Shown here: one piece after another, positions 2,086 to 51,564 of the stretch | Layout: every line of letters begins with the position of its first letter | Position numbering within the stretch: position 1 is the first letter of the stretch | Virus record (IMG/VR): IMGVR_UViG_3300029309_000053 | Coordinates: 1-55,281 of that record | Origin: a virus | Lineage: Duplodnaviria; Caudoviricetes | Direction: 5' to 3' (one strand) | DNA: 55,281 nucleotides | The notes under the pieces: generated by a model | What the model was told of the DNA's origin: nothing | Database searches by the model: none | Seen by the model: the letters and a program-made list of their open reading frames with translations, nothing else | Program-made: the position numbers and the translations under genes

Positions 2086-2640
2086 ATGTCTAATTACAAG
2101 TTTAAGACCACCAACATACGTGGCAAAAAATACGTTGAAGTCAACGAGAGAATCAAGTTCTTTCGTCAAGAAGATAGATATAAGGACTGGACGATTGCGA
2201 CCGAGTTCTCTATACTTGACGCAGAAGTTGCCGTATGCAAGGCAACTATCGCCGATACAGCTGGGAGAGTCATTGCCAATGGCCACGCTCACGAAGAGCG
2301 ATCAGGTAGCAACATCAACAAGACTAGCTTCGTTGAGAACTGCGAAACCTCCGCTATTGGGCGAGCCCTTGCCATGCTCGGAATCGGAATCGACACTTCT
2401 ATTGCGTCAGCTAATGAAGTCACGGAAGCCATCGCCAAGCAAGAGGAGATGGTCAACAATCCTCATGTACAGAAGCTTTCGAAAGTGCTCGACGCGCCAG
2501 TAGAAAACATTATGGACAAGGCTGTTTCATATATAAAGGGGCAGACCGATAAGCGAAAGGCGTTTGACTCAATCACCAAGAAGTATGGTGGTCAACTTAC
2601 TGAGAAGCAGGTAGCTGGCCTGAAGAAGTTTGTGCGATGA
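2086..2640 (+). CDS. single-strand annealing recombinase (Rad52/Sak-like)
   Basis: YVEVNERI...GHAHE...TSFVENCETSAIGRALAMLGIG motif; adjacent to an exonuclease and SSB. Confidence 0.7.
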   Translation: MSNYKFKTTNIRGKKYVEVNERIKFFRQEDRYKDWTIATEFSILDAEVAVCKATIADTAGRVIANGHAHEERSGSNINKTSFVENCETSAIGRALAMLGIGIDTSIASANEVTEAIAKQEEMVNNPHVQKLSKVLDAPVENIMDKAVSYIKGQTDKRKAFDSITKKYGGQLTEKQVAGLKKFVR

Positions 2641-3407
2641 CCATGCGAGACAGGCTGACAGAGATCGTGGGAAAGCCTCACCTGTCTTACTCCTCTATAA
2701 AGTACGCACTCGGAGACATGAAACTCTGGGAGATGTACATGAGGGGACAACTAAAGAAAGAGTCAGAGGCTCTGTATTTCGGCAGCCTGTACGACATGCT
2801 GCTCTTCGAGCCAGAGAAAGCGCAAGAGACTTACTACACACTCGATGACGCAGACATCATCAAAGAGATTGGTGGCAAGTCTCCACGCAACACCAAGAAG
2901 TATCGTGAGTGGAAGGAAGAGACTCTTGACTCCATGGATACTACAGACAAAATGTTAGTAAGCAACGAAGAGTGGCGACGAGCTAACGACATGATCAAGC
3001 GTCTAAAAGAATGCGGTCTTTACGACAAGCGATTTGCGGGCGGCAAGTATCAAGTAGAGTTTAATGTGGACGTCGACGGAATCCCATTAAAAGGATTCCT
3101 CGACTGCCTGAAGGATGACTGCATTATTGACTCCAAGTCCTCTCGTTCTATTAACAAGTTCAGGTACGACGTCAACAGCTTTAGCTATGACATCCAGGCC
3201 TACATCTACACCAAGGTGTTTGACATCAAGGATTTCTACTGGGTTGTGCAAGAGAAGGCATACCCGTTCTTTCCTGCAGATGTAAAGTGCTCAGACGAAA
3301 CCTTGTTCAAGGGTGAGATGAAGTTTCATGAAGCCATAGAGAACATCAAGAGTTGGCTCGATGGCAACAAGCAAACCATTACACACTATGCGGAGTTTAT
3401 TGTATAA
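2637..3407 (+). CDS. PD-(D/E)XK exonuclease, RecE/ExoVIII (DUF3799)-like
   Basis: HLSYSSIK, FGSLYD, KGFLDCL...IIDSKS and YDIQAYIY motifs. Confidence 0.8.
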   Translation: MTMRDRLTEIVGKPHLSYSSIKYALGDMKLWEMYMRGQLKKESEALYFGSLYDMLLFEPEKAQETYYTLDDADIIKEIGGKSPRNTKKYREWKEETLDSMDTTDKMLVSNEEWRRANDMIKRLKECGLYDKRFAGGKYQVEFNVDVDGIPLKGFLDCLKDDCIIDSKSSRSINKFRYDVNSFSYDIQAYIYTKVFDIKDFYWVVQEKAYPFFPADVKCSDETLFKGEMKFHEAIENIKSWLDGNKQTITHYAEFIV

Positions 3408-3483: not shown

Positions 3484-3501
3484 TCTTTTAATTTATATAT
3501 C

Positions 3502-3819
3502 ATGAGCGATAAGCAATATGATTCGGTACTCGTAGGGTACTGCGAAGAGCCTCGTTATTACGAGGAAAACCTGTCAAGCTGGTCAGTCAAACTCAAAGCC
3601 TCTGAGCTTCAAGAGATGATTGACAAGTACACAACTAGAGTTAACGAAGAAGGTCAGGGCGGAAACGTCTACCTAAAGTTATTCTTTAGCAAGAACGGTA
3701 AGCCGTGTTGCTCTGTCTTTGACCCAAACAGCGCCGCTGCTCAAGCTAGGCGTGAGGCTAAAGCAAAAGCAGAGAAAGCTCCTGCTCCAGTAGCAGAGAC
3801 AGATGACCTCCCGTTCTAA
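3502..3819 (+). CDS. single-stranded DNA-binding protein
   Basis: Acidic C-terminal DDLPF tail after an Ala/Pro linker; lies in the recombination module. Confidence 0.7.
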   Translation: MSDKQYDSVLVGYCEEPRYYEENLSSWSVKLKASELQEMIDKYTTRVNEEGQGGNVYLKLFFSKNGKPCCSVFDPNSAAAQARREAKAKAEKAPAPVAETDDLPF

Positions 3820-4090
3820 TAGAGCGCCTATCTATCACATGACCGCTCGTGTCGCCTTCAAGAAACGGAAGGCAGTACACGAGCGTGTTGTGTGGATAGT
3901 GTCCGTCTTTGATACTCCTAATGACATAAGCACATACGATCAGAAAACTATGACGCGCCTATATCACGAGATATACGGCAAGAATGCAAAGGCTGACAAG
4001 CAGATAATCATTAGGGAGATCGTAGACAAGAAGATGATATCCCATTCAACCCTTTCACTCGATGAACACAAGAAGCAAAATAAAAAGTAA
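3803..4090 (+). CDS. hypothetical protein
   Basis: 95 aa; overlaps both neighbours. Confidence 0.7.
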   Translation: MTSRSNRAPIYHMTARVAFKKRKAVHERVVWIVSVFDTPNDISTYDQKTMTRLYHEIYGKNAKADKQIIIREIVDKKMISHSTLSLDEHKKQNKK

Positions 4091-4427
4091 GTGCAAGAGT
4101 CTGGAGAACCTGCTTCTACAGAAGAATGCAAAATACGGAGACTCAGCCCTAAAGCCTTTGAATATTTTTTCTGAAGCCAATGCTGTGCACGGAATAAAGG
4201 TTCGTATTGACGACAAGCTTAAGCGAATAAAGAACTCAGGTCTCGTAGACGCAACGGAGGATACGTTGCAAGACCTAGCTGGTTACCTTATCCTCCTAAT
4301 GATTGCGAAGGAAAATGAAAGTAACAATATTCAAGAACGTATACGACAAGAAGAATCCACATCACATTCCGCTACCACAAGCGTTGGAGCGGATCCAGAT
4401 TGGGAGGTCGAGTACTTTAGTGACTGA
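4062..4427 (+). CDS. DUF1599 / nucleotide-modification-associated domain 1 (Nmad1)-like protein
   Basis: KNAKYGDS...RIDDKLKRI...EDTLQDLAGYLIL pattern; the last ~35 codons overlap the primase gene. Confidence 0.7.
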   Translation: MNTRSKIKSKCKSLENLLLQKNAKYGDSALKPLNIFSEANAVHGIKVRIDDKLKRIKNSGLVDATEDTLQDLAGYLILLMIAKENESNNIQERIRQEESTSHSATTSVGADPDWEVEYFSD

Positions 4428-6120
4428 GGTACGTGATGGCAACAAGGAGAAAAAGAAAGAATTGCCTGTCGTATGCTTTAGCGGAGAGTTTGCGTCGCGT
4501 TCCGATGACGCGCTCTTCGAGCACTCGGGATTTATTGTTTTGGACTTTGACCACGTTGACGTTAACCAGACCAAGCGGGCTCTTGCCACGGATGATTTCA
4601 TTCATTCATGCTGGACTTCGCCTAGTGGAAATGGAGTCAAAGCGCTGGTCCACATCACACATCCAGAAAGACACCGAGATCACTTCCGTGCTCTAATCAA
4701 GTACTTCGACAGAACACATGGGCTTGAATTAGATGAGTCGGGGATCAATGAATCTCGAGCTTGCTTCGAGTCTCATGACCCTGACATCATTATCAAGGAT
4801 GAGTACAGCAAGTTTGGTCACTTCACAACCGAGCACGCAGAGGCACAGGTGCCGACCAACGAGGCCTACGACTACACAGACTACATGAAGCTTAACCTCG
4901 CTGCGCGTATGATTCGTAACGCAGCGGATGGCGATAAGCACCGAGTGCTTGTAAATGCGTCTCGTCTATGTGGTGGCTACATTGCGGCAAGCAAGATGGA
5001 GCACGATGAGGTCGTGCGCATCTTGCATCGTGAGATTTGTAAGCGGGATATTGAATCACAGGATCACGCTCTCAACACCATACTTGATGGGATTGAGATT
5101 GGTAAGCGCATGCCTATACGAGACATCATTGAAGAGGAGAAAGCGGTTCAACGTGAGATGTTGTTGAATGATGGAGACATGTCGTTCATCTCTTCGGATG
5201 ACGAAGACTTCAGGTGGATTGACGACTACTCTCAGGGTAGGGTAGAAGTCGGACTAGACACTGGCGATGAAAGGCTTGATGAGCACTTTCGATACAAGAA
5301 GGAGTTCGTTATTGTCAACGGACACTCTAACGTGGGCAAGACAACCACCATGCTGTACCTGATTGCCAATTCAGTCGTGCGTCACGATTGGAAGTGGGTG
5401 CTATACTCCTCGGAGAATAGAACCGCATCCATCAAGATGACATTAATGCAGTTTGCTATGGACAAGAAGGTTGCAGACATGACATATCTAGAACGAAAGC
5501 AGGCGTACAAATGGGTAAGCGATCACTTCGTTGTCATCAGCAACAATCAAGTGTACGGTTATAACGATATCATCTTGTTCGTTGAAAAAGTTATGCGTCA
5601 GCAGCCCGTTGATGCAATCTTCGTAGACCCATACAACAGTTTAAAGCTGGACATGGGGCATAGAGGGGTGTCAAGTCACGAGTACCACTACGAGGCAGCT
5701 TCAGAGTTTCTTACGTTCAGCAAGGCCAACGACATTGCGGTATGGTTAAACATGCACGCAGTCACAGAGGCTCAGCGCCGCAAGGGTGACGATGGTCTGC
5801 CCGTAGCTCCGTATGCAGAGGACACAGAAGGTGGTGGCAAATTCGTAAACAGGGCCGATTGTTTCTTAACCATTCATCGAAAGGTTCAATCAATGGATTC
5901 TGACATACGCAGAATGAGCGAGTTGCATGTTCGCAAAGTTCGTGATGTTGAGACGGGAGGTCGTCCTACTGCGCTAGAGGACCCATATTACCTGATGATG
6001 AACCTTTCACACACTGGGTTCACAGACAGAATTGGCAAACGTGTTCTCTATCAACCGATTACATTTCCAAAAGAATCGACCATGACCATTCCTACAGACT
6101 GGTTGACGGTAGCGAGTTGA
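4315..6120 (+). CDS. primase-helicase (BT4734/VirE-N-like AEP domain fused to an SF4 DnaB/Twinkle-like helicase)
   Basis: KKELP...FSGEF...HSGFIVLDFD...SPSGNGVK; Walker A GHSNVGKT; Walker B IFVDPYN; HVRKVRD. ATG at 4315 preferred over the track start at 4303. Confidence 0.85.
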   Translation: MKVTIFKNVYDKKNPHHIPLPQALERIQIGRSSTLVTEVRDGNKEKKKELPVVCFSGEFASRSDDALFEHSGFIVLDFDHVDVNQTKRALATDDFIHSCWTSPSGNGVKALVHITHPERHRDHFRALIKYFDRTHGLELDESGINESRACFESHDPDIIIKDEYSKFGHFTTEHAEAQVPTNEAYDYTDYMKLNLAARMIRNAADGDKHRVLVNASRLCGGYIAASKMEHDEVVRILHREICKRDIESQDHALNTILDGIEIGKRMPIRDIIEEEKAVQREMLLNDGDMSFISSDDEDFRWIDDYSQGRVEVGLDTGDERLDEHFRYKKEFVIVNGHSNVGKTTTMLYLIANSVVRHDWKWVLYSSENRTASIKMTLMQFAMDKKVADMTYLERKQAYKWVSDHFVVISNNQVYGYNDIILFVEKVMRQQPVDAIFVDPYNSLKLDMGHRGVSSHEYHYEAASEFLTFSKANDIAVWLNMHAVTEAQRRKGDDGLPVAPYAEDTEGGGKFVNRADCFLTIHRKVQSMDSDIRRMSELHVRKVRDVETGGRPTALEDPYYLMMNLSHTGFTDRIGKRVLYQPITFPKESTMTIPTDWLTVAS

Positions 6121-6139
6121 CATTTGAAATTTCTCTTGG

Positions 6140-6147
6140 TACCTTCG
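6140..6147 (+). promoter_or_regulatory. -7 promoter variant TACCTTCG, 4 nt before the ATG
   Basis: One mismatch to TAnnTTTG; TTG at 6117-6119 could be the -33 element. Confidence 0.5.
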
Positions 6148-6151
6148 GTAT

Positions 6152-6613
6152 ATGAAGAGACAGAAGAAGACAACGCGGAAGCGATCCAGCGCTCGTAAAA
6201 AGCAGCTGGGTCGCTACGCCAGCTCTCTTGAAAAGTATTGTGCAGATCAGTTAAAAGAATACGGGTTAGCTTTTGACTATGAGGAGCACACCTTTGAACT
6301 GATGGAAAGGTTTAGGTTTCCAAACAAATACTTTAAGATGACAGCAAAGGGCAAGGAGATGACGGACCGATCTGGGTCCGTCGTACTCCCTGTTACATAT
6401 AAGCCTGACTTTGTCGGAAAAGATCACGATTGGATCATTGAAACCAAGGGATATCTACCGTCTCATCACGACTTTCCGATGAGGTGGAAACTTTTTCTTA
6501 GACATTTAGTTGGAAATGAATCAAATACGATTGTATTTTTAGCCAAGAATAGCGGTCAAGTAGATCATGCTATTCAGGAAATCCTAAAATCAATTAAGAG
6601 TGGAGACATCTGA
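6152..6613 (+). CDS. T7 endonuclease I-like Holliday junction resolvase
   Basis: YASSLEK...FDYE...TYKPDF...IIETKG motif. Confidence 0.8.
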   Translation: MKRQKKTTRKRSSARKKQLGRYASSLEKYCADQLKEYGLAFDYEEHTFELMERFRFPNKYFKMTAKGKEMTDRSGSVVLPVTYKPDFVGKDHDWIIETKGYLPSHHDFPMRWKLFLRHLVGNESNTIVFLAKNSGQVDHAIQEILKSIKSGDI

Positions 6614-6818
6614 GCTTAGCTACAGGCTGCATGAATGCTGCGACCGCATACATCAAGCCACAACAGATATGTACGAGGCCATGCACCCTGAAGGCGACCC
6701 TCACGGTGACTTCCTTATTGTTGAACAAAACGTTAGAGACTTTAGAGAGTGGGTCAACAATGAGATAGACCTGATTAGAGAACTAATAGGAGAGTACAGT
6801 GGCCAATATAAGCTCTAA
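6600..6818 (+). CDS. hypothetical helical protein
   Basis: 72 aa; GTG start; overlaps neighbours. Confidence 0.6.
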   Translation: METSELSYRLHECCDRIHQATTDMYEAMHPEGDPHGDFLIVEQNVRDFREWVNNEIDLIRELIGEYSGQYKL

Positions 6819-7362
6819 AAGAAGGGCTTATTCGAACAGCACTGGCAGGATCGCTGAGGTCAGGTTTGTCAGGGCTGCTAAAAACAAGGGCTTGATTGTT
6901 GCTAAGGCTACAGCTAAGCAGGATATTCACGAGCACATTGACTATTGGCTGGCCATGAACGAAGAGGGAAAGCAATGGGGCGTAGACGTCAAGGGTAACA
7001 ACTTACCCGATGAGATCTGGGTAGAATTTAATAATGTGAGAGGCGATAAAGGATGGCTGTATGGAGGGGCGACAATCATCGCTTTTGACATGCCAGAGGA
7101 GGGTGGTTTTTCTATAGTTGATCGAGAAGAACTTGCTTTCTTTTGCGAAAGACATGTAAAGAACGAAAAGGTAACTAACAAGAAGGATGCTTACCTAAAA
7201 AGATACACAAGAAAGGATAGGCAAGATGTGATTTCAATACTAAAGCTACACGATATCAAGTCTTTAATGTCATACAGGGTTTGGGAATACGATCAAAGTC
7301 ATTTATTATCTTTGACTCCCCATGAAAGTAAACAGACACAAAAAAATAAAGATGAATATTGA
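6799..7362 (+). CDS. PD-(D/E)XK-fold hypothetical nuclease
   Basis: GRIAE..F...HIDYW...VDVKG...WVEF...GWLYG pattern. Confidence 0.6.
   Translation: MANISSKRRAYSNSTGRIAEVRFVRAAKNKGLIVAKATAKQDIHEHIDYWLAMNEEGKQWGVDVKGNNLPDEIWVEFNNVRGDKGWLYGGATIIAFDMPEEGGFSIVDREELAFFCERHVKNEKVTNKKDAYLKRYTRKDRQDVISILKLHDIKSLMSYRVWEYDQSHLLSLTPHESKQTQKNKDEY
7307..7314 (+). promoter_or_regulatory. -7 promoter element TATCTTTG
   Basis: Consensus match, 7 nt before the ATG at 7322. Confidence 0.5.
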
Positions 7363-7528
7363 CAGGTTGCTAGAAGCGAATGCAAAGTATCAAGCGAATC
7401 ACGTATGCGTAAGTAACACGCCTGAACAGCAGAAAGAAATTAATGATTACTGCAATGAAAAATTTATAAAACCAATTAAGGATATAGATCCACATTGGTT
7501 TGGGATAATCAAGAAGCAAAGCGAATAA
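7322..7528 (+). CDS. hypothetical protein (start 7322 or 7352)
   Basis: 68-aa ORF; last gene of the replication block. Confidence 0.65.
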   Translation: MKVNRHKKIKMNIDRLLEANAKYQANHVCVSNTPEQQKEINDYCNEKFIKPIKDIDPHWFGIIKKQSE

Positions 7529-7532
7529 GTAT

Positions 7533-7540
7533 TATATTTG
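7533..7540 (+). promoter_or_regulatory. -7 promoter element TATATTTG
   Basis: Same 8-mer as the late-gene promoters; lies immediately after the stop at 7528. Confidence 0.6.
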
Positions 7541-7544
7541 CACT

Positions 7545-7614
7545 GTTACACGGGTTATTTAGCTGTGGAACTTCGCAATCTGTAGAGGGGGGCTGCACAA
7601 GCTCCCCTCTTTTT
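7545..7614 (+). ncRNA. candidate ~70-nt small RNA
   Basis: Bounded by a consensus promoter (7533-7540) and an intrinsic terminator (7584-7614); no ATG inside. Confidence 0.4.
7584..7614 (+). terminator. Rho-independent terminator
   Basis: AGAGGGGGGC-TGCACAA-GCTCCCCTCT followed by a T run. Confidence 0.8.
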
Positions 7615-7620
7615 GTTTCT

Positions 7621-7628
7621 TACCTTTG
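7621..7628 (+). promoter_or_regulatory. -7 promoter element TACCTTTG for the secreted-protein cassette
   Basis: Directly after the terminator and 7 nt before the ATG at 7636. Confidence 0.65.
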
Positions 7629-7635
7629 TTGTCGA

Positions 7636-9549
7636 ATGAGAATAGTTATTACCATCCTGTTTATGGGCGCTATATTTATGAGCCAAGCTCAAGAGTGCTC
7701 TTTGTTAATGCCTGATAATGTGAAAGTTATGGGGCTCACTAAGCGGTATTTAGTTGTTGATCTTGATGAGGTTGAGACCGTTACTCTACCTATTGTATTT
7801 CACATTGTGCATACTGGGTTGAGTTCAGAGAACAACATATCTGACGAACAAGTCCTCTCTCAATTGCAAGTTTTAAACGAAGAGTTTGAGGACAGCAAGA
7901 TACAATTCTGCTTAGCCGCTAGAGATCCAGATGGTAATCCATCGGTTGGTATAACTAGGTATGACGCTTCGTGGAACGAAGAGTATTTATATGACGGTGT
8001 ATCAAACGGAGCAATGGGCTCAAGTGGGTGGGGCCACGAAGACATGATGCAGTCTTCTGGTTGCTGGAATCCTGATGAATACATAAACTACTACATAGTT
8101 TCTGAGATCAACGGCAACGACGGAGGTAATGGTATTCAAGGCTTTGCATACTTAGGACCCACAAATGACTGCAGAGATGGGGTTGTTTGTCTGTATAATG
8201 TCACGGGCACAGAAGGTGTTGTTAAGTTGGGGAGAGAGCTTGGGTTTACTGGAGTCCACGAGATAGGTCATCATCTATCTCTGTACCATACGTTCTCAAA
8301 CACAATGGACTGCTTTGAGAGCAACTGTGAAACTCAGGGAGATCTAGTCTGTGACACTCCTGTGACATTCGCAAATCAGTCTGGCTGTGACTTACCCACA
8401 TGCGAGGGGGCTCTCACTGAAAACTTCATGGACTATACCATTGAGAGCTGTAAGGAAAGCTTCACTGTTGGGCAGTCAGAGCGTATGCACGAGCAGATAC
8501 AGACTGTCAGGTCTGAACTCGTAGACAACCTATCTTGTGTGCCTGTGGTTGACTATGACGTCACCCCGTATACAGCTATGTATCAAGAGGATTGGTGTAC
8601 CCCGTATCAAGATATATGGATTGATGTTTCAAATCAGGGCAGCACCACCTTAGACTTAGTAGAAGTTCAGCTTTATTGCAACGGTGACGAATATGTAGAG
8701 TACATATACGACATGGGTGTTGGTGTTGAGTCAGTTTTGTTTGAACAGGTTTTTGTTGACGGAGCTCAACAGTTTGAGGTTCAGACTATTAGCGCTCAGG
8801 ACCAGTACGAGGACAATGACTACGCATGGTGGCCACTCTCCACCGACGATGGCTACCTTATGCAGATCACAGTGGACACAGATGTCTGGGCCAACGAAAC
8901 TAGCTGGGACATATACGACTCATCTGGCGAGTTGCTTATAGGCGACGGGGGATACCCCATTCAATCAGGCCCATACGAATATGAAGTTTGTGTGTACGAC
9001 GATTGCTACGACATAGTTATTACTGACACTAATGGTGATGGGTTCTGCTCAATAGACTTTGACAATGATGGAGCTTGTGATATAGGCTCTCAAGGTATTA
9101 CTGCAGTTGTAAACGGACAGGTTGTTTTTGGCACTGAATTTGGACAGCAGTTCTCTGTGTTGGAAGAAAGCTTTTGTATAGACATAGAGCCATGTCCGTT
9201 AGACTTTGATGGCAATGGGACTATAGGCAACGGCGATATTATATACATGGTTGGTGAGTGGGGGTGTGAAGGCGACTGCGAAACAGACCCGAACAATGAT
9301 GGGACTGTGAATGTTTTTGACTTGCTTTATGTGCTTACTGAAATAGGCACCAACTGTCCGATAGAGCAAGACCTTTCTATTGGCATGCTAAAGCAACTAA
9401 CTGTTGCATCTTCTAGCATTATTGGTGGGGCTTCGCCACGCATATACGATGTATCTGGGAGAAGAGTTAGGGGTCAGATAGAAAGCCTTGCTACTGGGGT
9501 GTACATATTGAAGTGGGGCAACGTAACCAAAAAAGTATTTGTCCAATGA
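7636..9549 (+). CDS. secreted pappalysin/ulilysin-type M43 zinc metalloprotease with a dockerin-like Ca-binding repeat and a T9SS type A C-terminal sorting domain
   Basis: Signal peptide MRIVITILFMGAIFMSQA|Q; LPIVFHIVH...ISDEQV..Q..VLNE.F; metzincin HEIGHHLSLYHTF; Met-turn ENFMDY; DFDGNGTI/DPNNDGTVNVFDLL; C-terminal IYDVSGRRV...LATGVYIL...TKKVFVQ. The track start at 7495 would run through the terminator. Confidence 0.88.
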   Translation: MRIVITILFMGAIFMSQAQECSLLMPDNVKVMGLTKRYLVVDLDEVETVTLPIVFHIVHTGLSSENNISDEQVLSQLQVLNEEFEDSKIQFCLAARDPDGNPSVGITRYDASWNEEYLYDGVSNGAMGSSGWGHEDMMQSSGCWNPDEYINYYIVSEINGNDGGNGIQGFAYLGPTNDCRDGVVCLYNVTGTEGVVKLGRELGFTGVHEIGHHLSLYHTFSNTMDCFESNCETQGDLVCDTPVTFANQSGCDLPTCEGALTENFMDYTIESCKESFTVGQSERMHEQIQTVRSELVDNLSCVPVVDYDVTPYTAMYQEDWCTPYQDIWIDVSNQGSTTLDLVEVQLYCNGDEYVEYIYDMGVGVESVLFEQVFVDGAQQFEVQTISAQDQYEDNDYAWWPLSTDDGYLMQITVDTDVWANETSWDIYDSSGELLIGDGGYPIQSGPYEYEVCVYDDCYDIVITDTNGDGFCSIDFDNDGACDIGSQGITAVVNGQVVFGTEFGQQFSVLEESFCIDIEPCPLDFDGNGTIGNGDIIYMVGEWGCEGDCETDPNNDGTVNVFDLLYVLTEIGTNCPIEQDLSIGMLKQLTVASSSIIGGASPRIYDVSGRRVRGQIESLATGVYILKWGNVTKKVFVQ

Positions 9550-10562
9550 AAAAGCTGCTGTGGTTTTTCTTGCCTCTAGTTTCTTGGGGGCAATGTGACA
9601 TAGAGATAATAGGATTCAACCCTATATCCACTGACATGACTATCGCTGTCAACGGAGGGTACTGCGGGACCCCCTCAGACTCGATTGGAGAGTTCTTGCT
9701 TGCACTATCTTTTACCCCGCCTATAGAAGACATACAAGATGATTTTCCTTGCTTCTATGAGGACGGCTGGGCTAAATTAATATTTCCGTTAGACTTTCCT
9801 GGATTCGACATAGGCGAGGGTGAAGACGACATACTTCAGACGGGCGACACTATTACTTTTAATCTTGCAGAAACGCCGTGGGCTGGATCTGGATCTGCAG
9901 ACTGTTGGATTGATGTAATGCAAAGCGCAGCATACTTTATGGAGTGTGTGATAATAACTGTGTGGCAGATAAATGACAGCGAGAGCATAACAGGCGTAGG
10001 CGGACTTGCGGGATTCCCATATCCAGATGAAGATATATGGAACAGCTGGATCATGTGGTCTCTAAATGGCGCTTGTTCGCCACCGCCACCCCCAATCGTA
10101 TACGGATGCACCGATATGTTCGCATACAACTACAACGGAACTGCCACGATAAACGACGGAAGCTGTGTGTATCAGGGGTGCTTAGATCCTGACGCGCTAA
10201 ACTACTGTGAGGAATGCACTATAGAAGGTGACTGCATATATCCTCCAGACGACAACGACCTAGGCATTGATTGTAACGATCCATCTATCTACGTTCCAAA
10301 TACTTTCACGCCAAACAACGACGGAATAAACGATGTCTGGAGGCCCATAACCAAGCAGGATTGCTGGTGGAAGTGGGAGTGCCGCGTGTACAACAGGTGG
10401 GGCACGTTGGTTTGGATAAGCTACGACCCTAACGACAAGTGGATAGGGGAAAGGCTTGAGTACTTTGTTCCCGATGGGGTGTACACCTGGATGATACAGG
10501 GTTCCACATGGGAAAGCAATAAGGTTGTAAGTATGACAGGTAACGTAACTATCTTCAGATAA
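9546..10562 (+). CDS. secreted Cys-rich protein with a T9SS type B (gliding-motility-associated, CHU_C-like) C-terminal domain
   Basis: Signal peptide MKKLLWFFLPLVSWG|Q; two GC(T/L)D..A.NY repeats; IYVPNTFTPNNDGINDVW...VYNRWG...VPDGVY...GNVTIFR; ATGA overlap with the protease gene. Confidence 0.88.
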   Translation: MKKLLWFFLPLVSWGQCDIEIIGFNPISTDMTIAVNGGYCGTPSDSIGEFLLALSFTPPIEDIQDDFPCFYEDGWAKLIFPLDFPGFDIGEGEDDILQTGDTITFNLAETPWAGSGSADCWIDVMQSAAYFMECVIITVWQINDSESITGVGGLAGFPYPDEDIWNSWIMWSLNGACSPPPPPIVYGCTDMFAYNYNGTATINDGSCVYQGCLDPDALNYCEECTIEGDCIYPPDDNDLGIDCNDPSIYVPNTFTPNNDGINDVWRPITKQDCWWKWECRVYNRWGTLVWISYDPNDKWIGERLEYFVPDGVYTWMIQGSTWESNKVVSMTGNVTIFR

Positions 10563-10778
10563 TTACTCTACTTTATTTTTTGCTAGCAACAGCTTGATCT
10601 CTTGAATATCTTTTAATAGCTGCTTGACGTCGGCCTTAAACTCTGCGTTGTCTGTTTCAAGAGCATGAACGCGAGAGCTCAGTTTACCGTAGTCGTTTTG
10701 GAACTTTATCCAGCCACAAACTAACGCCCCTGCTACCGTTAGAAATTCAAAATGAGTTAAGTTTTCTAGCATAGCCAA
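10563..10778 (-). CDS. small membrane protein, probable holin or lysis accessory
   Basis: N-terminal hydrophobic segment plus coiled coil; end of the late block. Confidence 0.6.
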   Translation of the reverse strand: MAMLENLTHFEFLTVAGALVCGWIKFQNDYGKLSSRVHALETDNAEFKADVKQLLKDIQEIKLLLAKNKVE

Positions 10779-10781
10779 TAA

Positions 10782-10916
10782 TTATGACCCGCAGGCCTCA
10801 CATTCCTCTGGGTTCTCGATATTGCAAACCAGCTCGCCGCTTTTAATCTTATCTTCTTGCTTCTTTAGCTTATCGGCATCAAGAAATTCGCAGCAAAAAT
10901 CCTCTTCGTTGATCAT
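10782..10916 (-). CDS. 44-aa Cys-rich peptide ending CNIENPEECEACGS (not in the ORF track)
   Basis: Translated by hand: MINEEDFCCEFLDADKLKKQEDKIKSGELVCNIENPEECEACGS; ATGA overlap with the holin stop; fills the gap exactly. Confidence 0.75.
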   Translation of the reverse strand: MINEEDFCCEFLDADKLKKQEDKIKSGELVCNIENPEECEACGS

Positions 10917-11344
10917 TTTCTAGATTTTTCTATAGTCCTTCCCGCAAAGTATGCCCCAAAAGAAGTAAGCATCAGGATCTCCAGCAAAGATACATAAGAA
11001 TTTTTGACGTTAAAAGGCAGCTGATCAAGGGAGTCCAAAACCATTGTAGCCATAAACATTATCATTAGGCAGATTAAAGTAACTGGTCTTATGTACTTTG
11101 CAAGCTTGACATCGCTACCCATATCCGCCTTCCATCTTTCGGTTACGTTATTTTGAAATGCAATTTCTGCATCAACTATAGCCTTAGCTTCTGCGGGATC
11201 TACGTCATCCTCTTTATCTAAAAGGTTTTTTACAATGCCGAGCGCTCCCTTGTCGGGGAGCAGCTCGCCTACCGTGTCTAATACGCTGGGCGCCTTGTCT
11301 TTGAGCCAGGCCCCCAGCCGTGTGTTTTTAATTTTGTCTTTCAT
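10913..11344 (-). CDS. holin (3TM/GTA-holin-like)
   Basis: RWKADM.SD..LAK.IRP followed by two hydrophobic helices and AYFAGRTIEK. Confidence 0.75.
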   Translation of the reverse strand: MKDKIKNTRLGAWLKDKAPSVLDTVGELLPDKGALGIVKNLLDKEDDVDPAEAKAIVDAEIAFQNNVTERWKADMGSDVKLAKYIRPVTLICLMIMFMATMVLDSLDQLPFNVKNSYVSLLEILMLTSFGAYFAGRTIEKSRK

Positions 11345-14300
11345 GTATTGCGTTTGTTATAGCGTTCCTTGATCTCGGGTCTATGTACTTGCCCCTGAGT
11401 TCGTAATAGGCTTTGTTGAACTGGCTGATCTCAACTAACTCAGCCTCAGTAAGTTGATGAATAGCATTGATCCTGTCGATGTAGTCCTCAATCTTCTGGG
11501 CATTTTGCCTTGCCTCCCTGATAATCTCAAGTCTTTTCTTGGTGCCCTTTAGCACTTCATTGAGCTGTTGCACGCCTACGAAGTTCAGCCCCTGAGCATC
11601 CGTCTCACCTTTGTCAATCTCTCTTGTGTACTGCCCTAGCTCGTTGACGTTCTCTGTGAAAACGTCGTAGTTATAGTACTTGTTCTCCTTTCCGTACAAG
11701 ATGTTAAGGAACGGGATGTCCTTTCTTTCGATGGGCACGGTGTCCTCTTCGCGCATGGTAAACAGTTCATCAAGGAACTGATCAGAGCTTTCGAGATTTT
11801 GCAGTCTAGTCACCTTTCTCTTAGCCACCTCGTATCCGATACGGCCAAGGTTTGCCACCTGGCCTATGGTCTTTCCGAGGCCTGCGGTGTATGAGGAGAT
11901 GAGATATGCGTATGGGTCTGGATTAAAGTCAAGCGGTCCGCTTACATTTTCTGTGCCCTTTCCACCAAGCGCGTTTAGATACTTGGCTAGTTGCTTGACA
12001 ACCTCAGGGGATCTGAATGACAGAGTCCACTCTGGCACTGGTGCTCCAAACGGATACTGCTCTCTGATAATCTGGTTGCCAGTAAAGGATGTATTAGAAT
12101 ACAGGTCAACTGGGAATCTAAGAGCAGTCGGCAAGAAGCCCAACCCGATCCGCTCAATCACGTTGTCCCCCTGACCAAATCCGAGAGGAGAGAAAGAGTT
12201 CAACGCCCCCATACCGAGGAACACACCCCCATCGATGATGTCTCTCTGTCCAGTAGACAGCTCACCTATGGCCATGCCTATGTTATTAAACATGTTGTAT
12301 CCGTATGGGATAGGCAGGGTAAGGTAATCGCTAGGTCCGTCTCCGTAAAAGATGATGGAGTTTCTCTCCTTCACGTAGTCAGGGATGGTGTTGTAGTACA
12401 ACTCACCATCCTCCCCCTCTCCAGACATGGCAATGTTGAACAAGGTCTTCATCACCTCAAAGGCTACGACACCTCCAGCCAGCTTTGCTGTGGCAGGGGC
12501 CCTATTAAACCAGCCGTCTGACTGGCCGTTCTGACCTGGAGGCTTAGCCTTGGGTGTGGCCATGGTTCTTGTAAACCTGGCCGCAGACTGAGACGCTGCG
12601 TTGAAGAACAGATACATAGAGTTGTAGCTTGAAGACGCCTCACCTGATCTGTTAAAGTTCACGGTTATGTTCTTAGATAGCTGTGCTGCTCTTTGCTTTG
12701 ATACTCCGACCTTGCGAGCCTCTAGGTAGGCCGCAAATCTAATCGCGTTCTCAAAGGCCTCGTTGATGCCCTCGATATACTCAAAGATTTTCTTACCCTG
12801 ATAGAATCCCTTAAGAATTTCCTTAGCCTTAGCTGGATCCCCTGCTGCTTTCTCAAGTTTGCCCTGGATCTCGGCGATGGTTTCAGAATACGCCCACCCA
12901 GTTCTTCCTCCTGACTGCTTCCACTCCTGCAACTGTTTGGCCATCTCGGGATCGAGGTCGAACCCAAAGACGCCTTCCTTTAGCAGGGGCTTGAGCACCT
13001 TAAGCGATGTTGACACAACATCCCTAGAGAACTCACCTGGCTTTAAGCCGAAGCCAGTCATAATACCACCGTCTCTCTCCACCTCAGACATGGCGTTGAA
13101 TACGGCAGAGCCTATGTCTCGAACGTAGTTCTTAATGAAGAACGCGGGATTGTACACGGTTGCAAAGTTTCTTAGCAAAGAGATGTACTTACCCATGCTC
13201 TTTACGGCTGATCCTGTTTCTTCCTCCGTAAGTCCGTTCAAAGCATCAGCATAGCTCATGTCCTTGAAGAAGATAAAGTGCTGCTTACCGTTGATGCGAA
13301 GCGGCACCATGTGACGGTGAGCCTTCATCTCCGCTACGTTCATCTTCTGCTGAGAACCATCATCAGCAAGCTTGGTCATAGGGTTGGCTTCGGAGTAAAG
13401 CTTCCACACACCCTCATTCGGGTTCTCCTGAACCAATCTATGGAGCGAACGCATAGACTCATCCTTTCTTGCACGCTGCTTAATTGACATGTTCTGAGCA
13501 ATCACAGATGCCACGATATTCGTGCCAGTTCTAGACTTTCTACCCTTGGCCTTTTTACTTGACATACCATAGACAGAGAAACCGCCTCCCCCTGTTGGGT
13601 AGGAGTTGCTTTCTTCTGACTGCTCATCAAGAGCCAGGCCATTAAGCGGTACGTAGTTCTTGAATAAAGACTCCCAATGAGCAATGACCTCTCTTGATTC
13701 AAGGCCGCCTTCTACCATGGTCCTTCGTGTGTTAGCAACGATGTCGTACACAAGGTTTACTGAGTCCATGATCTCAGGGGACATAAGCTCGTCGATGATT
13801 GCGTCGGCCTCTTCGTTGGTCATACCAGAGCCTGCGTCCAAGTCCTTTCTCTTCTTGGAGATATGTGCGTTGCGCTCCTTAGCGTGCAGCGCATATAGCA
13901 AGTCAGACAGATCTTCAACCGTGTGGCCAGAAACCTCAAGGCTCTTACCTATCTTCTCTATCTCTCTGCCCAGCGACTCCATGTCCTCTCTTACCTTTCC
14001 GTAGAAGAGATCGATGGCCATCTCAAAGTCCTGAGACTCAGGCACTCTCTGACCCCTGAAGACCTCGATGTCCTGCTGCAAAAGCATGATATCGCTGTAC
14101 TTGTCCTGCAGCCTTCTTGTGATGGTCTGCAGCTTCTCTCCGTACGGGGTAGCGGTAGACTTCTCCCAAGCACTGTTACCCTGGGTGTACACTCTACCCA
14201 TCAGCCTTCTAGACCTCAAGGCCTGAGAGCCTCTAGCAAACTTAGACTCCTGCTGAGCGTGCTGACCAAACCTCCTCATGATGCGAGGCTTGTCAGGATT

Positions 14301-17300
14301 GTATATTACGTCAGCGTCAGAGGCCTTATCGTAGAGGGCGTAAGCCACGTCATTCATGCTCTCTGCCATAACAGCAATCGGGAAACCGTTGTTGAAGTTA
14401 TCTCCAGTCGTATCGTCTAGCTTCTCCGTAGTGAGCCCAGACGTTCTCGCAACATACGTAGCAACTATTCTTCCCGTACCGTCGGCTCCTAGATCGTTGA
14501 ATCTAGGGTCGTTCATGGTCTGTAATATCTCCTCTTTGCTCAGGAAGCCATCGTGATTCTTTGCCTTCATGCCTTTGACAACCTTGTCGATAAAAAGACC
14601 CCTTCCCTCAAATCCAAGCTGCTCATTTACATGCTCAGGAAGGTTGGACATAAATTCAAGAAACGCCTCAAGTCCCTGCTCGTCTTGAATGGTGACGCGA
14701 TTCTTTTTGACCTTAATGCCAGCCTTGTTCTTAAGCTTTCTGTCGTTCAGAACCCTTTCGAATTTGCTGTATTTCTTTACACTTGAGTTCGTGCCTCTCG
14801 TAGTCTGATATTCTTTCGAGGTTATGCCAATCTGACTCTTGAGCACCTCATTTATAACCGCAATGAGATCCTTATTGTAGTTGTTTCCTGACGCCTTGTT
14901 CTGACTGTAATACTCATTGACATATCTGAAGAACATCTCAATAGTCTTAGGGCTTCTGAGCGTGTTTTCTGGAGCTCTAAGGGCTATATCTATTGCTACG
15001 TACTTAGCGAACTCAGGCATGTCCGTAATCGCACTAGCGCTCTCTCCGTTAACGTGAGAAGAAAGCATTGCATCATTGAATGCAACTGCACCAAGCGGAC
15101 CTCCTATTTGATTCTGAATGAGCGCAATCCCGTTGCCCTCGCTGTCCCTAAGCTGATTTCCCTTCTTGTCCTTGATCACCCAAGCAACCTCTCCATGTCT
15201 AGTTCTGTCATAGAGAATAGCCTTGCTTACCATATTGTTCATAAGGCTTTTAACGGTGATGCCAAGCTTCTTGGCTGCCGCCTCGAGAGCTTCTCTTCTG
15301 TTCTTTCCAAACACAGCCCTGTCGCTGAGAGACAACGCTTCCTGTTCCGTCATGCCGATCGACATGTTGATGTAGTCGGAAGACCCCATGTCTCCATAGG
15401 TTTTAGGGCGGCCCTTCTTCTTACTGCCAATACCGATATCTCCTGTTGTCACCCTTGTGGACCTGAGGGGTCCACCAGCCTGAGCGTCGAGCACAAAGTC
15501 AGCACCCTCCTTGATCTCCTCAAGTCTAATGGTGGCATAGGACAACTCGTCCTCTGGTATCATAGACAGGTCTTCGACTCTTCTCTTCCTGGAGATAGAG
15601 CCTGGGGGTAACAACTCCCACACGTTGACCCCAAGCTCAGTGGCTTCGTATTCGAGCTGAGCGTTAGCCTCGTCTGCTGTAAGAAAGTCATAATCCTTTG
15701 CCAGATCAAAAAGCTCTGGAGCATTCTTCCTGTCCAAGACATAAACGGTTCTGTCAGACCTGGCTTGAACTTTAGCATGAACCTCGGCGATGTCAATGCC
15801 TGAGTTCATGAGAGCGAGCATGTTGTTTCTCTGCTGCAGCTGGAATCTAGCGGCCTCAACAGGTGTAAGAAACTGGGTGTCTGCGTCCACGACAGGCTTG
15901 AAGGAATGAAATTCAAGGCTAAATGTTTTGCCTTCCTTAGACTCTATGTTCTTAAACATATTGTGAATACGAGAGGTCTCTTGAACTAGGCTGCCTCGCT
16001 TCATTGCTACTTCCCTACCTATGTCCACCCTAGTCATAAGGTCGTTCATATTTCTCTCCCTTGGGAGCTGAAGAATAGGCTTCATGACCTTTGGCTTGCC
16101 ATCCTTATCAAGTCTTGGCTTAGGGTAGTTGAGGTTAAATCTCTTTCCGTCTCTGAAGAAGTGGATGTCTCTGATAACCCCCTCTCTTCTACCGTTGCCA
16201 GTCATGCTGGCATACCAGTTTGCAAAGTGTCTGTAGTCGTTGAACGTCTTGCTTCTCTGGCTGTCCATCTGAGACCCTCTGCCTACACGGGGATTAGCCT
16301 CCAAGTCTCCGAAGTTGAATACGTTCTGTGTCCAGAAAATCTCCACGTTCTGGAGATACTGCTTCTTGCTAGCAAGTGGTTGACCGCTTTCGATCTCTGC
16401 GATATCCTCTGCTGTCTCAACCTGCTCTGGGGTTGTGTACATCTCCCCAAGCGACTCACCCTCTGCAAAGTTCTTAAACCTCAAAACAAGGTTGATGAGG
16501 TCAGAGTCGGTTGATGCGTCTGGGAACCCCGTGATCTTAGAGAACACATTACGAACCACAGCCTTGACGCCTAGGTCAGAGATCTCAAAACCCTCGATGG
16601 GGTTTTGAGATCTTATGAACTCACCCTCAGCGATTGCCTCAAACAGAGCTGTGATAAGCTCTCTATCTCTTTCGCCTCTCGCTGCCTCCGAGTACTGCAT
16701 GTCCAACGCCTCAACAAGCTCCTGAACTCTCTCAGACTTGAGGCCCCTGATCTGTTCGGCAAGATCGTACACCATCTCGGGATTATCCTGGAAGAGAGGC
16801 TCGAGGAAGAAGTGCGTGTACTCGTGGAATGCAACTCTGCTTAGGTCTGCATCCTTGTGTATGTGGATCTCGTGAGAGCCGTCAGGTCTCTCCATGTACA
16901 GCCCCTCGGTGACAAGCTCGTTCCTGAATGGCACAGGCGCCTCGCTTCTCACACTCTCTCCATTGACGTATGCAAGAGACTCGTCATCGTGAAGGACAAT
17001 GCTTACGCGCCTACCACTTCCCTTTGCTTGATCAATGACATTCTGAAGAGCCTTAATTTCGGAGGCGGTGAACTGTGAGAGGTCCACCTCTTGATCTCCG
17101 TCGATGACAACTTCTCTCGCATCCGCAAACCCTCTTGATCTCCAGTCTTGACCCTGCGTTGTAACGAGTCCACCAAACGAGTCCACACCGATCCTTCCCT
17201 CGCCAGAGAACATAAGCAACCCGAGGTTGATATTCTGTATCTGCTTGCCGCCCTTATTGTACGCATCTTGCAGCTCAGCAAATCTCTCCTGAGACATACC

Positions 17301-48149: not shown

Positions 48150-48161
48150 GTATAATTGTTG

Positions 48162-48235
48162 TACGCCCGACAGGACTCGAACCTGTGACCGTCTGCTTAG
48201 AAGGCAGATGCTCTATCCATCTGAGCTACGAGCGC
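48162..48235 (-). tRNA. tRNA-Arg (anticodon TCT); CCA not encoded
   Basis: Full cloverleaf: GCGCTCG TA GCTC AGATGGATA GAGC A TCTGC CTTCTAA GCAGA CGGTC ACAGG TTCGAGT CCTGT CGGGCGT A. Confidence 0.95.
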
Positions 48236-51081: not shown

Positions 51082-51564
51082 TCACAGTGATTTACCAAAA
51101 ATTACTTTATAATACATCTTTCCCTTATCATCTCTACAAGCTTTAAGGCAGCGGCCACGATTAATCCCGTCGTGAACGTAACTAACGTGAACCCAATCAG
51201 GATTGTCCTCATCACCAAACTCCCAAATAAGCTGATCAAACGTGAGATTCTCTCTAATATAATTGAAGATTTTAGAGTTTGATATCCTGCCAAATACATC
51301 GCCATCAAGATCGAGTGCTCTTCCCTCCACATGTTGGCTACGTAAAGAGCCGCCAATCGCGCGGTTGAGATCAGCCGAACGATAGCCTGACGAAACGTAT
51401 ATAGGCCTTCCGAAATGGTTGCGCAAAGGTTGGAAAACATGTTCTGCGATGCTTTTAAGATTTTCAATAACCCATTCATCTTCTGGTTCGTTGTTTATTC
51501 CGAGGCGCTTAGCAGTGTTGCTCCGCAAACATTCGGAAAGGGTTAGATTTTTGGATAGCTTCAT
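51082..51564 (-). CDS. endolysin, peptidase M15 family
   Basis: LSKNLTLSE; SSGYRS..LN..IGG..SQH..G.ALD; WVHVSY zinc-ligand motifs. Confidence 0.85.
   Translation of the reverse strand: MKLSKNLTLSECLRSNTAKRLGINNEPEDEWVIENLKSIAEHVFQPLRNHFGRPIYVSSGYRSADLNRAIGGSLRSQHVEGRALDLDGDVFGRISNSKIFNYIRENLTFDQLIWEFGDEDNPDWVHVSYVHDGINRGRCLKACRDDKGKMYYKVIFGKSL

Follow-up and report, generated by a model that had tools for sequence, protein, structure and literature searches.

Why does a phage carry, between its replication genes and an opposite-strand holin gene, a protease and a second protein that both appear to be addressed to the outside of the infected cell? The question is raised by IMG/VR virus record IMGVR_UViG_3300029309_000053, one linear record of 55,281 bases (hereafter the window, meaning the whole stretch analyzed; CheckV completeness estimate 89%). 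Its positions 7621-10562 hold a metalloprotease gene (gene 1) and a gene for a protein that ends in a predicted type B C-terminal sorting domain (CTD) of the type IX system for secretion (T9SS; gene 2). The T9SS occurs in Bacteroidota. The original prediction described the pair as a phage-encoded T9SS cargo operon, with a type A CTD on the protease and a type B CTD on its partner. The reading that we favor, by a little more than even chances, is that the two genes form a conserved moron-like accessory module of marine crAss-like and other Bacteroidota phages, and that both proteins would be exported from the infected cell, the surface of which would be remodelled before lysis. The parts of the module are as follows.

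7584-7620, + strand: terminator-like hairpin and T-run (stem 7584-7610, 11 pairs, 7 of them G-C, then TTTTTGTTTCT)
7621-7628, + strand: promoter-like motif TACCTTTG, fitting TAnnTTTG, 7 nt before the ATG at 7636
7636-9549, + strand: gene 1, 637 amino acids (aa)
7636-7689, + strand: predicted signal peptide of gene 1, residues 1-18, read by eye; predicted cleavage between A18 and Q19, then invariant C21
7759-8520, + strand: M43 catalytic domain, residues 42-295 (PF05572), with HEIGHHLSLYH and the NFMDY Met-turn
8539-8850, + strand: CARDB-like beta-sandwich, residues 302-405, from model and structure comparison
8854-9180, + strand: second beta-sandwich, unassigned, residues ~407-515, strands modelled with good confidence
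9193-9360, + strand: dockerin/EF-hand-like segment, residues 520-575, two DxDxDG-type loops with a helix behind each
9376-9546, + strand: 57-aa C-terminal tail of gene 1, ending ...GVYILKW..TKKVFVQ
9546-10562, + strand: gene 2, 338 aa
9546-9590, + strand: predicted signal peptide of gene 2, residues 1-15, read by eye; predicted cleavage between G15 and Q16, then invariant C17
9591-10070, + strand: N-terminal domain of gene 2, residues 16-175, matching no named family
10071-10283, + strand: PPPPP linker and two Cys-rich repeats of ~22 aa (CTDMFAYNYN...DGSCVY and CLDPDALNYC...GDCIY)
10284-10559, + strand: predicted T9SS type B CTD of gene 2, residues 247-338, from PF13585 and fold

The case for secretion is carried by gene 2. 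PF13585 (CHU_C) recognizes its C-terminal domain with 51.3 bits over residues 249-321, and with 54.5 bits in a six-frame search, against a cut-off of 27, which bears out the type B CTD of the original prediction. In an AlphaFold2 (AF2) model built on a 62-row alignment, with a mean predicted local distance difference test (pLDDT) score of 85.3, residues 247-338 form a beta-sandwich (pLDDT 81-97). This sandwich superposes on the CTD of NucA in a T9SS translocon complex (8glk_D; VIA-align Z 8.7, root-mean-square deviation (rmsd) 2.1, 73 of 75 residues); it also matches the cargo CTDs of the Flavobacterium johnsoniae SprA translocon structures 8glj, 8gl8 and 8gl6, the CTDs of PorZ (Z 8.5) and PorU (Z 8.1), and those of RgpB and mirolase. 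The stated Z background of VIA-align is 7-8 and these values lie close to it, so that the case rests on the hidden Markov model (HMM) together with the repeated CTD matches, which filled the VIA list and left the N-terminal domain barely covered. The modelled fold supports a T9SS CTD but not a subtype, the solved CTDs that it matches not being known as type B.

Read by eye, the N-terminus of gene 2 is MKKLLWFFLPLVSWG followed, after the predicted cleavage site, by QC, a clear n-h-c pattern with a Gly-Gln junction. A GQ(GI/GT)C start is present in 23/23 gene 2 sequences, and Q16 and C17 are invariant in the 19 that were aligned. The domain that follows (pLDDT mostly 66-93) has only 28 representatives among 1.84 billion protein cluster representatives, and in all 28 it begins ~18-27 residues from the N-terminus, just behind the signal peptide. 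CHU_C lies above its cut-off at the C-terminus of all nine longer or divergent proteins that share this domain. A profile of the domain gave no match at E <= 1 to PDB sequences, a search of the ESM Atlas with residues 16-180 gave no usable match, and neither the pattern scan of bacterial genomes described below nor the protein cluster searches gave bacterial relatives. The PPPPP linker and the Cys-rich repeats are lineage-specific, and most of the wider family is without them.

This family appears to be small and restricted to phages. A word-indexed search returned 346 relatives of gene 2, with PF13585 in 119 of the 120 listed. The largest contigs of nine clusters of the family are no longer than 71 kb, apart from one cluster at 173-175 kb that corresponds to a 169-kb IMG/VR viral contig (L045). 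On that contig, positions 3501-6247 hold a tandem pair of gene 2-like genes (619 and 296 aa) with a 4-nt overlap and no M43 gene, each with a signal peptide, a GQCD start and a CHU_C type B CTD. A scan of 185,579 species, each represented by a single genome, with two peptide patterns, which indicates rarity of close relatives and not absence, met the gene 2 family at two loci only, both in one metagenome-assembled genome (MAG). These are contigs of 33 kb and 12 kb (L043 and L044) with homologues at 69-72% identity, in a MAG titled Parvibaculum sp., an alphaproteobacterium; they are probably phage contigs that were mis-binned. Within reach of these searches, then, the family appears to be phage-borne.

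PorP/SprF (PF11751), the usual partner of type B cargo, has no match in the window at E <= 1, and no individual searches were made for the remaining T9SS components; the original statement that neither T9SS machinery nor a PorP/SprF gene is recognizable holds in its second half and to that extent. A complex prediction for gene 1 residues 19-637 with gene 2 residues 16-338 scored 0.30 against a mark of 0.32 and gives no verdict on binding either way. Taken together, gene 2 is a credible candidate T9SS type B cargo whose PorP/SprF partner is not encoded by the phage.

The product of gene 1 is, to judge by its sequence, a catalytically intact zinc endopeptidase of the pappalysin family (M43). It matches PF05572 with 56.3 bits (cut-off 23), and 94 of 96 homologues carry this domain. 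The predicted metzincin site is intact in the translation, as had been claimed: the HExxHxxxxxH motif and the Met-turn align with the same motifs in ulilysin, and H208, E209, H212, H218 and M265 are invariant in 18/18 and 46/46 aligned relatives. The nearest solved structures are ulilysin and mirolysin, both with the single sequence (E 5e-22 and 1.7e-21) and with the family profile (3.5e-37 and 6.5e-34), and pappalysin-1 and -2 rank lower. By eye, the N-terminus reads MRIVITILFMGAIFMSQA followed by QEC; as in gene 2, a basic beginning and a hydrophobic stretch lead up to a small residue at the predicted cleavage site, and Q-E/T/D-C is kept across the aligned gene 1 sequences. The original claim of two signal peptides followed by Gln thus stands as a reading by eye, with the Gln kept in all relatives examined. 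Lipoprotein signals were considered for both proteins and rejected, by eye and on the usual rule, as AQE-C, WGQ-C and GQGI-C are unlike a lipobox. Only ~22 residues separate the signal peptide of gene 1 from its catalytic domain; they contain the invariant Cys21, which we suggest, as speculation drawn from mirolysin, may act as a cysteine switch.

Behind the catalytic domain, an AF2 model of residues 296-637 (mean pLDDT 74.8) consists of a CARDB-like sandwich, a second sandwich (strands at pLDDT 81-92), two helices behind the DxDxDG loops and a weakly predicted C-terminal piece. The CARDB-like domain matches 3idu_A (VIA Z 11.3, rmsd 2.3 over 99 residues), and PF07705 is precomputed in 2 of the 96 homologues. 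The EF-hand Pfam models give E 0.4-0.9 for the dockerin-like segment, under the cut-off and not significant, and its two helices have pLDDT ~64. Foldseek searches of the PDB with the models of both genes returned generic Ig-like or multi-domain matches with low TM.

Whether gene 1 also ends in a sorting signal turns on its last 57 residues. The tail follows the pattern ...PRIYD.xGRRV...L.TGVYILKW..TKKVFVQ, with 14 invariant positions, and is shorter than the ~72-75 positions of the type A CTD models. TIGR04183 gives 10.1 bits and E 0.63 against a cut-off of 23, along profile positions 24-71 only; it reaches E <= 1 in just 3 of 18 members of the gene 1 family, with a best value of 0.096. Six-frame searches of the window with PF18962 and TIGR04183 gave no match at E <= 10, and precomputed PF18962 is found in none of the 96 homologues. 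In the AF2 model the tail forms three short strands in the last 36 residues (pLDDT 56-64); the available text of PMC11285876 describes the type A CTD as a compact seven-stranded beta-sandwich of 3+4 strands. Fold matches to the gene 1 model cover the CARDB-like domain, which filled the VIA list, and none covers the tail. A profile of the last 80 residues, searched against the PDB, gave five matches at E <= 10, of which four are the CTD of RgpB; these align with the last ~48 residues up to the C-terminus at E 0.083-0.46, below significance, a weak resemblance that is specific in kind. The tail may be a minimal type-A-like signal.

A search of 5.8 billion proteins with a profile of the tail gave, at the longer lengths, 70 matches, all of them to its own family or fragments of it except one. 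The exception, P0236, is an unrelated 820-aa protein with Big_2 domains, the residues 783-820 of which form a 38-aa tail that is 48% identical to that of gene 1. P0236 has no TIGR04183 match either, and this result neither ties the gene 1 tail to the named CTDs nor rules such a tie out. Short C-terminal tails of this sort may form a class that escapes the present CTD models.

The layout of the module is as originally predicted: a two-gene unit behind a terminator, with the TACCTTTG motif and an ATGA overlap, located between replication genes (primase/helicase and endonuclease) and the opposite-strand holin, all at the positions listed here. The hairpin and T-run resemble an intrinsic terminator and would close the upstream replication-gene cluster; the same T-run stands ahead of gene 1 in related loci with the window-type backbone. 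The motif fits TAnnTTTG, the Bacteroidota -7 promoter consensus. Of 28 rows, the window included, 14 have a TAnnTTTG no more than 60 nt ahead of gene 1, and in 10 of those 14 it lies at -15 behind the same T-run; it lies at -12 once (L004). It is found 48 times in the window against 32.6 +/- 5.6 in shuffled sequences, none of 100 shuffles reaching 48, and so the motif by itself is weak evidence for a promoter; TACCTTTG is best called a putative one. A sigma-70 promoter scan, with a model ill-suited to Bacteroidota, found 9 promoters against 8.5 expected. The ATGA at 9546-9549 is common to the end of gene 1 and the start of gene 2, which is probably translationally coupled to gene 1 through it.

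The original prediction also proposed to check whether related phage contigs carry the cassette, and they do. A search with gene 2 gave 23 distinct IMG/VR contigs (67-94% identity), and in all 23 gene 1 lies directly upstream (tblastn, 53-76% identity; cut by the contig end in L011) with the same 4-nt overlap. Many of these contigs, though not all, have the backbone of the window, with primase/helicase and endonuclease on one side and holin on the other. On L004 the module is flanked by the terminase gene and a GroES-like gene, at the place that tRNA-Arg takes in the window, and on L012 to L014 and L025 it has unrelated large open reading frames (ORFs) upstream and metallophosphoesterase and primase genes downstream. 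At least three phage backbones carry the module, which is mobile as a unit. With its promoter-like motif, its terminator and its variable presence and place, it looks like a moron-type accessory module.

Both genes are intact and under strong purifying selection. Pairwise Nei-Gojobori estimates of omega, restricted to pairs with 0.05 < dS < 1.5, gave medians of 0.07 for gene 1 (from the 5 of 120 pairs with usable dS) and 0.05 for gene 2 (8 of 120). The tail of gene 1 alone has a median of 0.30 over 19 pairs, a short and noisy stretch. Between the window and L004 (9887-10903 being its gene 2), gene 2 is 94% identical and gene 1 only 76%, which suggests recombination inside the module. On L009 (8001-8522) a premature stop shortens the gene 2 homologue to 173 aa; the near-identical copy on L008 is of full length, and the short one is a broken copy or an assembly error. 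A tblastn search of 50,697 phage records found no full-length relative of either gene: gene 1 had a match in one record over 14% of the query, and gene 2 in two over 27-36%, in the CTD only. The latter are LR745206.1 and LR756502.1, uncultured phages of ~640 kb with 31-37% identity in the matched part, so that type B CTD-like domains occur in megaphages too.

The remainder of the window is that of a phage, as expected from the original prediction: terminase, portal, holin and primase/helicase genes are recognized by PHROG matches, and the entry is an IMG/VR virus record. The features that place it are these.

2637-3407, + strand: PDDEXK-like protein, in the replication-side region
4303-6120, + strand: primase/helicase, PHROG match
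6152-6613, + strand: endonuclease, between the primase/helicase and the module
10563-10778, - strand: 71-aa ORF, hydrophobic at its start and coiled-coil-like beyond, convergent with gene 2 and, in its own reading sense, preceding the holin
10779-10912, - strand: 44-aa Cys-rich ORF, between the 71-aa ORF and the holin
10913-11344, - strand: holin, downstream of the module
11328-19871, - strand: giant ORF, 2847 aa, the C-terminal third of which has a 39%-identical match on L024
22808-23839, - strand: Crassvirus muzzle C-terminal domain protein (PF25729, 52.8 bits against a cut-off of 27)
23843-30502, - strand: giant ORF, 2219 aa
43638-46016, - strand: portal, PHROG match
46035-48149, - strand: large terminase (TerL), PHROG match
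48161-48235, - strand: tRNA-Arg (TCT), just upstream of the terminase gene
51082-51564, - strand: endolysin-family gene (phrog_894, E 1e-32)

Replication-type genes occupy the + strand of the first 10.5 kb, and the remainder lies mainly on the - strand. TerL is 40-47% identical to TerL of Flavobacterium, Cellulophaga and Tenacibaculum phages. The muzzle domain and the giant ORFs mark the phage as crAss-like, and the flavobacterial type of TerL, the muzzle domain and the enrichment of TAnnTTTG together point to a marine crAss-like phage whose host is very probably a Bacteroidota bacterium; the runs from which the reads come are labelled 'marine metagenome'. The lysis genes are split, the endolysin-family gene lying ~40 kb from the holin. 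The stop codon of the 71-aa ORF abuts that of gene 2 with zero spacer, and L010, L027 and L051 have this ORF, at 73-91% identity, next to the holin as well; it and the 44-aa ORF may be lysis accessories. Gene 1 was also considered as an endolysin and rejected, the separate endolysin-family gene making a lysin role for it unnecessary; M43 enzymes are not known to act as wall hydrolases.

On the favored reading, the host RNA polymerase would transcribe the module from the TAnnTTTG promoter that it carries, at the same time as the replication genes or shortly afterwards. Both proteins would cross the inner membrane by Sec and be trimmed to an N-terminal Gln, in keeping with the 'Q-rule' that the available text of PMC5837995 and PMC10653852 gives for Gln after signal cleavage in Bacteroidetes, and that the accessible part of PMC10367356 notes for proteins of P. 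gingivalis phages. Gene 2 would then pass the SprA translocon of the host and be held at the surface by a PorP/SprF-like shuttle, also of the host, while the gene 1 protease would reach at least the periplasm and, with its 57-aa tail, perhaps the surface. Before lysis the pair would alter the surface of the infected cell, most plausibly by cleaving or covering proteins there, so that superinfection would be blocked or fewer progeny would be left stuck to debris; this purpose is suggested by analogy.

Several observations weigh against this reading. The type A CTD claimed for gene 1 is unconfirmed: the tail fails both curated models, and of the two 'intact-looking' sorting domains originally described only that of gene 2 is upheld. 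The tail is absent in 4 of 8 distant gene 1 homologues that were aligned (583-596 aa), which end in ...GPCPEE where the tail would start. All nine viral loci of this tail-less sister subclade keep gene 2 directly after gene 1, abutting or overlapping by tblastn coordinates, and most of them have the same phage backbone; the tail is thus a module that can be separated. Given the failed models and this subclade, export of the protease past the periplasm is unproven. For gene 2 as well, TIGR04131 scores 33.4 bits, 1.6 bits short of its cut-off of 35. Nor need the two genes act together: on L051 (2315-6008), which has the window backbone, a gene 2 homologue occurs without an M43 gene, the place of which is taken by the genes for the small and large subunits of ribonucleotide reductase. 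The phage has no PorP/SprF gene of its own, and according to the available text of PMC12618676 type B cargo is usually strongly shuttle-specific. Such specificity of the cargo-shuttle pair means that the phage CTD must mimic a host CTD, which may explain the high conservation of the CTD of gene 2. Possession of a T9SS by the host is deduced from its likely phylum alone, and 'early' timing from the strand and the neighboring genes alone. Finally, no evidence points to a substrate of the protease.

A more specialized version is possible but doubtful. In it, the phage-only family with its unique N-terminal domain and type B CTD would be a dedicated T9SS-hijack effector acting on the secretion and gliding machinery of the host; it would often bring the pappalysin-type protease along by co-secretion or docking, and the protease would strip receptors or adhesins, giving a type IX superinfection exclusion. 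The piggy-back element is proposed because the protease keeps its place even where the tail signal is lost.

Other explanations give the protease or the pair a different task. Nutrient scavenging, in which a released protease digests external proteins or particles and gene 2 serves as a surface tether or substrate-binding partner, is unlikely. Mirolysin and similar M43 enzymes are secreted broad endopeptidases of Bacteroidota, and the closeness of ulilysin and mirolysin to gene 1, its CARDB-like and dockerin-like modules, which are typical of extracellular enzymes, and the marine origin of the sample all fit such a task, as do the 'additional enzymatic capabilities' that Bellas et al. proposed for Cryophage cargo in the accessible text of PMC7468147. 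However, a lytic infection is short and a diffusible protease is of little private benefit, the tail-less proteases have no recognizable signal for export across the outer membrane, gene 2 is retained where ribonucleotide reductase genes replace M43, and no peptide-uptake genes are seen near the module. It is rather improbable that the protease is a lysis helper that cuts the tethers between outer membrane and wall from the periplasm and so aids holin and endolysin. Its position beside the lysis genes would then make sense, since the holin and the convergent 71-aa ORF adjoin the module in the window-type backbone; tail-less variants are expected to remain periplasmic, and general searches of the window identified no spanin-type gene. 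But the module lies on the replication-gene strand, with its own promoter-like motif and a terminator ahead, it is away from the lysis genes on L004 (beside TerL) and on L012 (on another backbone), and the idea fails to explain the retention of a T9SS type B partner at every one of the 32 loci.

Phage particles often bear Ig-like and CARDB-like domains, and the BFVD match list includes tail proteins at weak scores, so the two products might be virion proteins, such as a tail enzyme and a fibre, misread as secreted; this is most improbable, as signal peptides with Gln at +1 are kept family-wide in both genes, gene 2 ends in a T9SS sorting domain, and the module belongs to the replication cluster, on the strand opposite the structural genes. 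An assembly chimera, with host DNA joined into a viral contig, is effectively refuted. The drop in GC to 0.387 in 7001-8000 and the gene 2 homologues on the two Parvibaculum sp. MAG contigs had allowed for it, but the same arrangement occurs in 23/23 and 9/9 viral contigs that were assembled independently and have phage genes to either side of it, and the species-wide genome scan gave only those two loci, on contigs of 33 kb and 12 kb. The two junctions, near 7620 and 10562, singled out in the original prediction are moreover bridged by Logan contigs, the first from X1 (6565-7854), X2 (6565-8102) and X4 (7582-7843) and the second from X1 and X2 (10528-11014), X3 (10489-10639) and X4 (10530-10775). 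X1 and X2 are one sample, which may be the source of the window, and X3 and X4 belong to other studies; with contigs from three studies across the junctions, the module is not chimeric host DNA.

How far does the module resemble systems already described? Mirolysin (Tannerella forsythia), which Bacteroidota export through the T9SS, and ulilysin are proteases of MEROPS M43B; they have a catalytic domain homologous to that of gene 1, with the same HExxHxxxxxH motif and Met-turn; unlike them, gene 1 is phage-encoded, carries CARDB-like, second beta-sandwich and dockerin-like modules, and ends in a tail of only 57 aa where a full CTD would stand. Phage morons and surface proteins of superinfection exclusion, such as Llp of T5 and Cor, are small receptor-blocking lipoproteins. 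The module is like morons in being a self-contained promoter-gene unit at varied insertion sites that encodes envelope proteins dispensable for particle formation; it differs from Llp and Cor in combining an enzyme with a protein that would be routed through the T9SS, and an exclusion role for it is proposed by analogy with them.

The closest precedents come from uncultured phages, and the original statement that no phage system like this has been characterized goes too far. According to the available text of the two papers, Bellas et al. 2020 described a 'Cryophage' with three variable genes bearing type A sorting domains (PMC7468147), and de Jonge et al. 2019 reported T9SS sorting-domain proteins on crAss-BACON contigs (PMC6949934). 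As far as that text goes, these are likewise uncultured Bacteroidota phages with T9SS sorting-domain proteins for which a hijacking of the host is proposed, all of it computational; their cargo consists of type A domains on glycoside hydrolases, PA14 or BACON proteins and varies between phage variants. The module described here differs in its solid type B signal on a phage-specific protein family, in its coupling to a protease and in its conservation in many contigs. Among the viral UniProt entries in BFVD are some named 'gliding motility-associated C-terminal domain-containing protein', one of them from Virus NIOZ-UU157, and one BFVD entry shares 67% identity with gene 2. Phage T9SS cargo as an idea is thus already in print, and automatic annotation already flags such genes.

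On the bacterial side, the accessible text of PMC12618676 reports that the orphan type B cargo proteins Fjoh_1123, 1720 and 4934 of F. johnsoniae are secreted via an orphan SprF-like shuttle, Fjoh_1677, and that of PMC9143113 describes surface anchorage by binding to a PorP-like protein for SprB-SprF and PG1035-PorP. Like the orphan cargo, gene 2 combines a signal peptide and a type B CTD without an adjacent porP/sprF-like gene; unlike it, gene 2 is phage-borne, and any shuttle must be that of the host. A literature search, which covered main texts and left most subscription journals outside, turned up no account of the module. Its new elements are a phage-specific carrier domain with a type B signal, the fixed coupling to M43, the series of gene 1 proteins with and without the tail, and the occurrence on several backbones with its breadth of conservation.

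Type IX secretion builds the surface of Bacteroidota, including adhesins, gliding motility and degradative enzymes, and many flavobacterial phages need this T9SS-built surface to adsorb. If the favored reading is true, the module would offer a natural handle on how type B signals and shuttles choose one another, on whether short C-terminal tails act as secretion signals, and on how phages re-dress the cells that they infect. Because it is widespread in marine viral contigs and strongly conserved, it probably affects the infection of abundant ocean flavobacteria.

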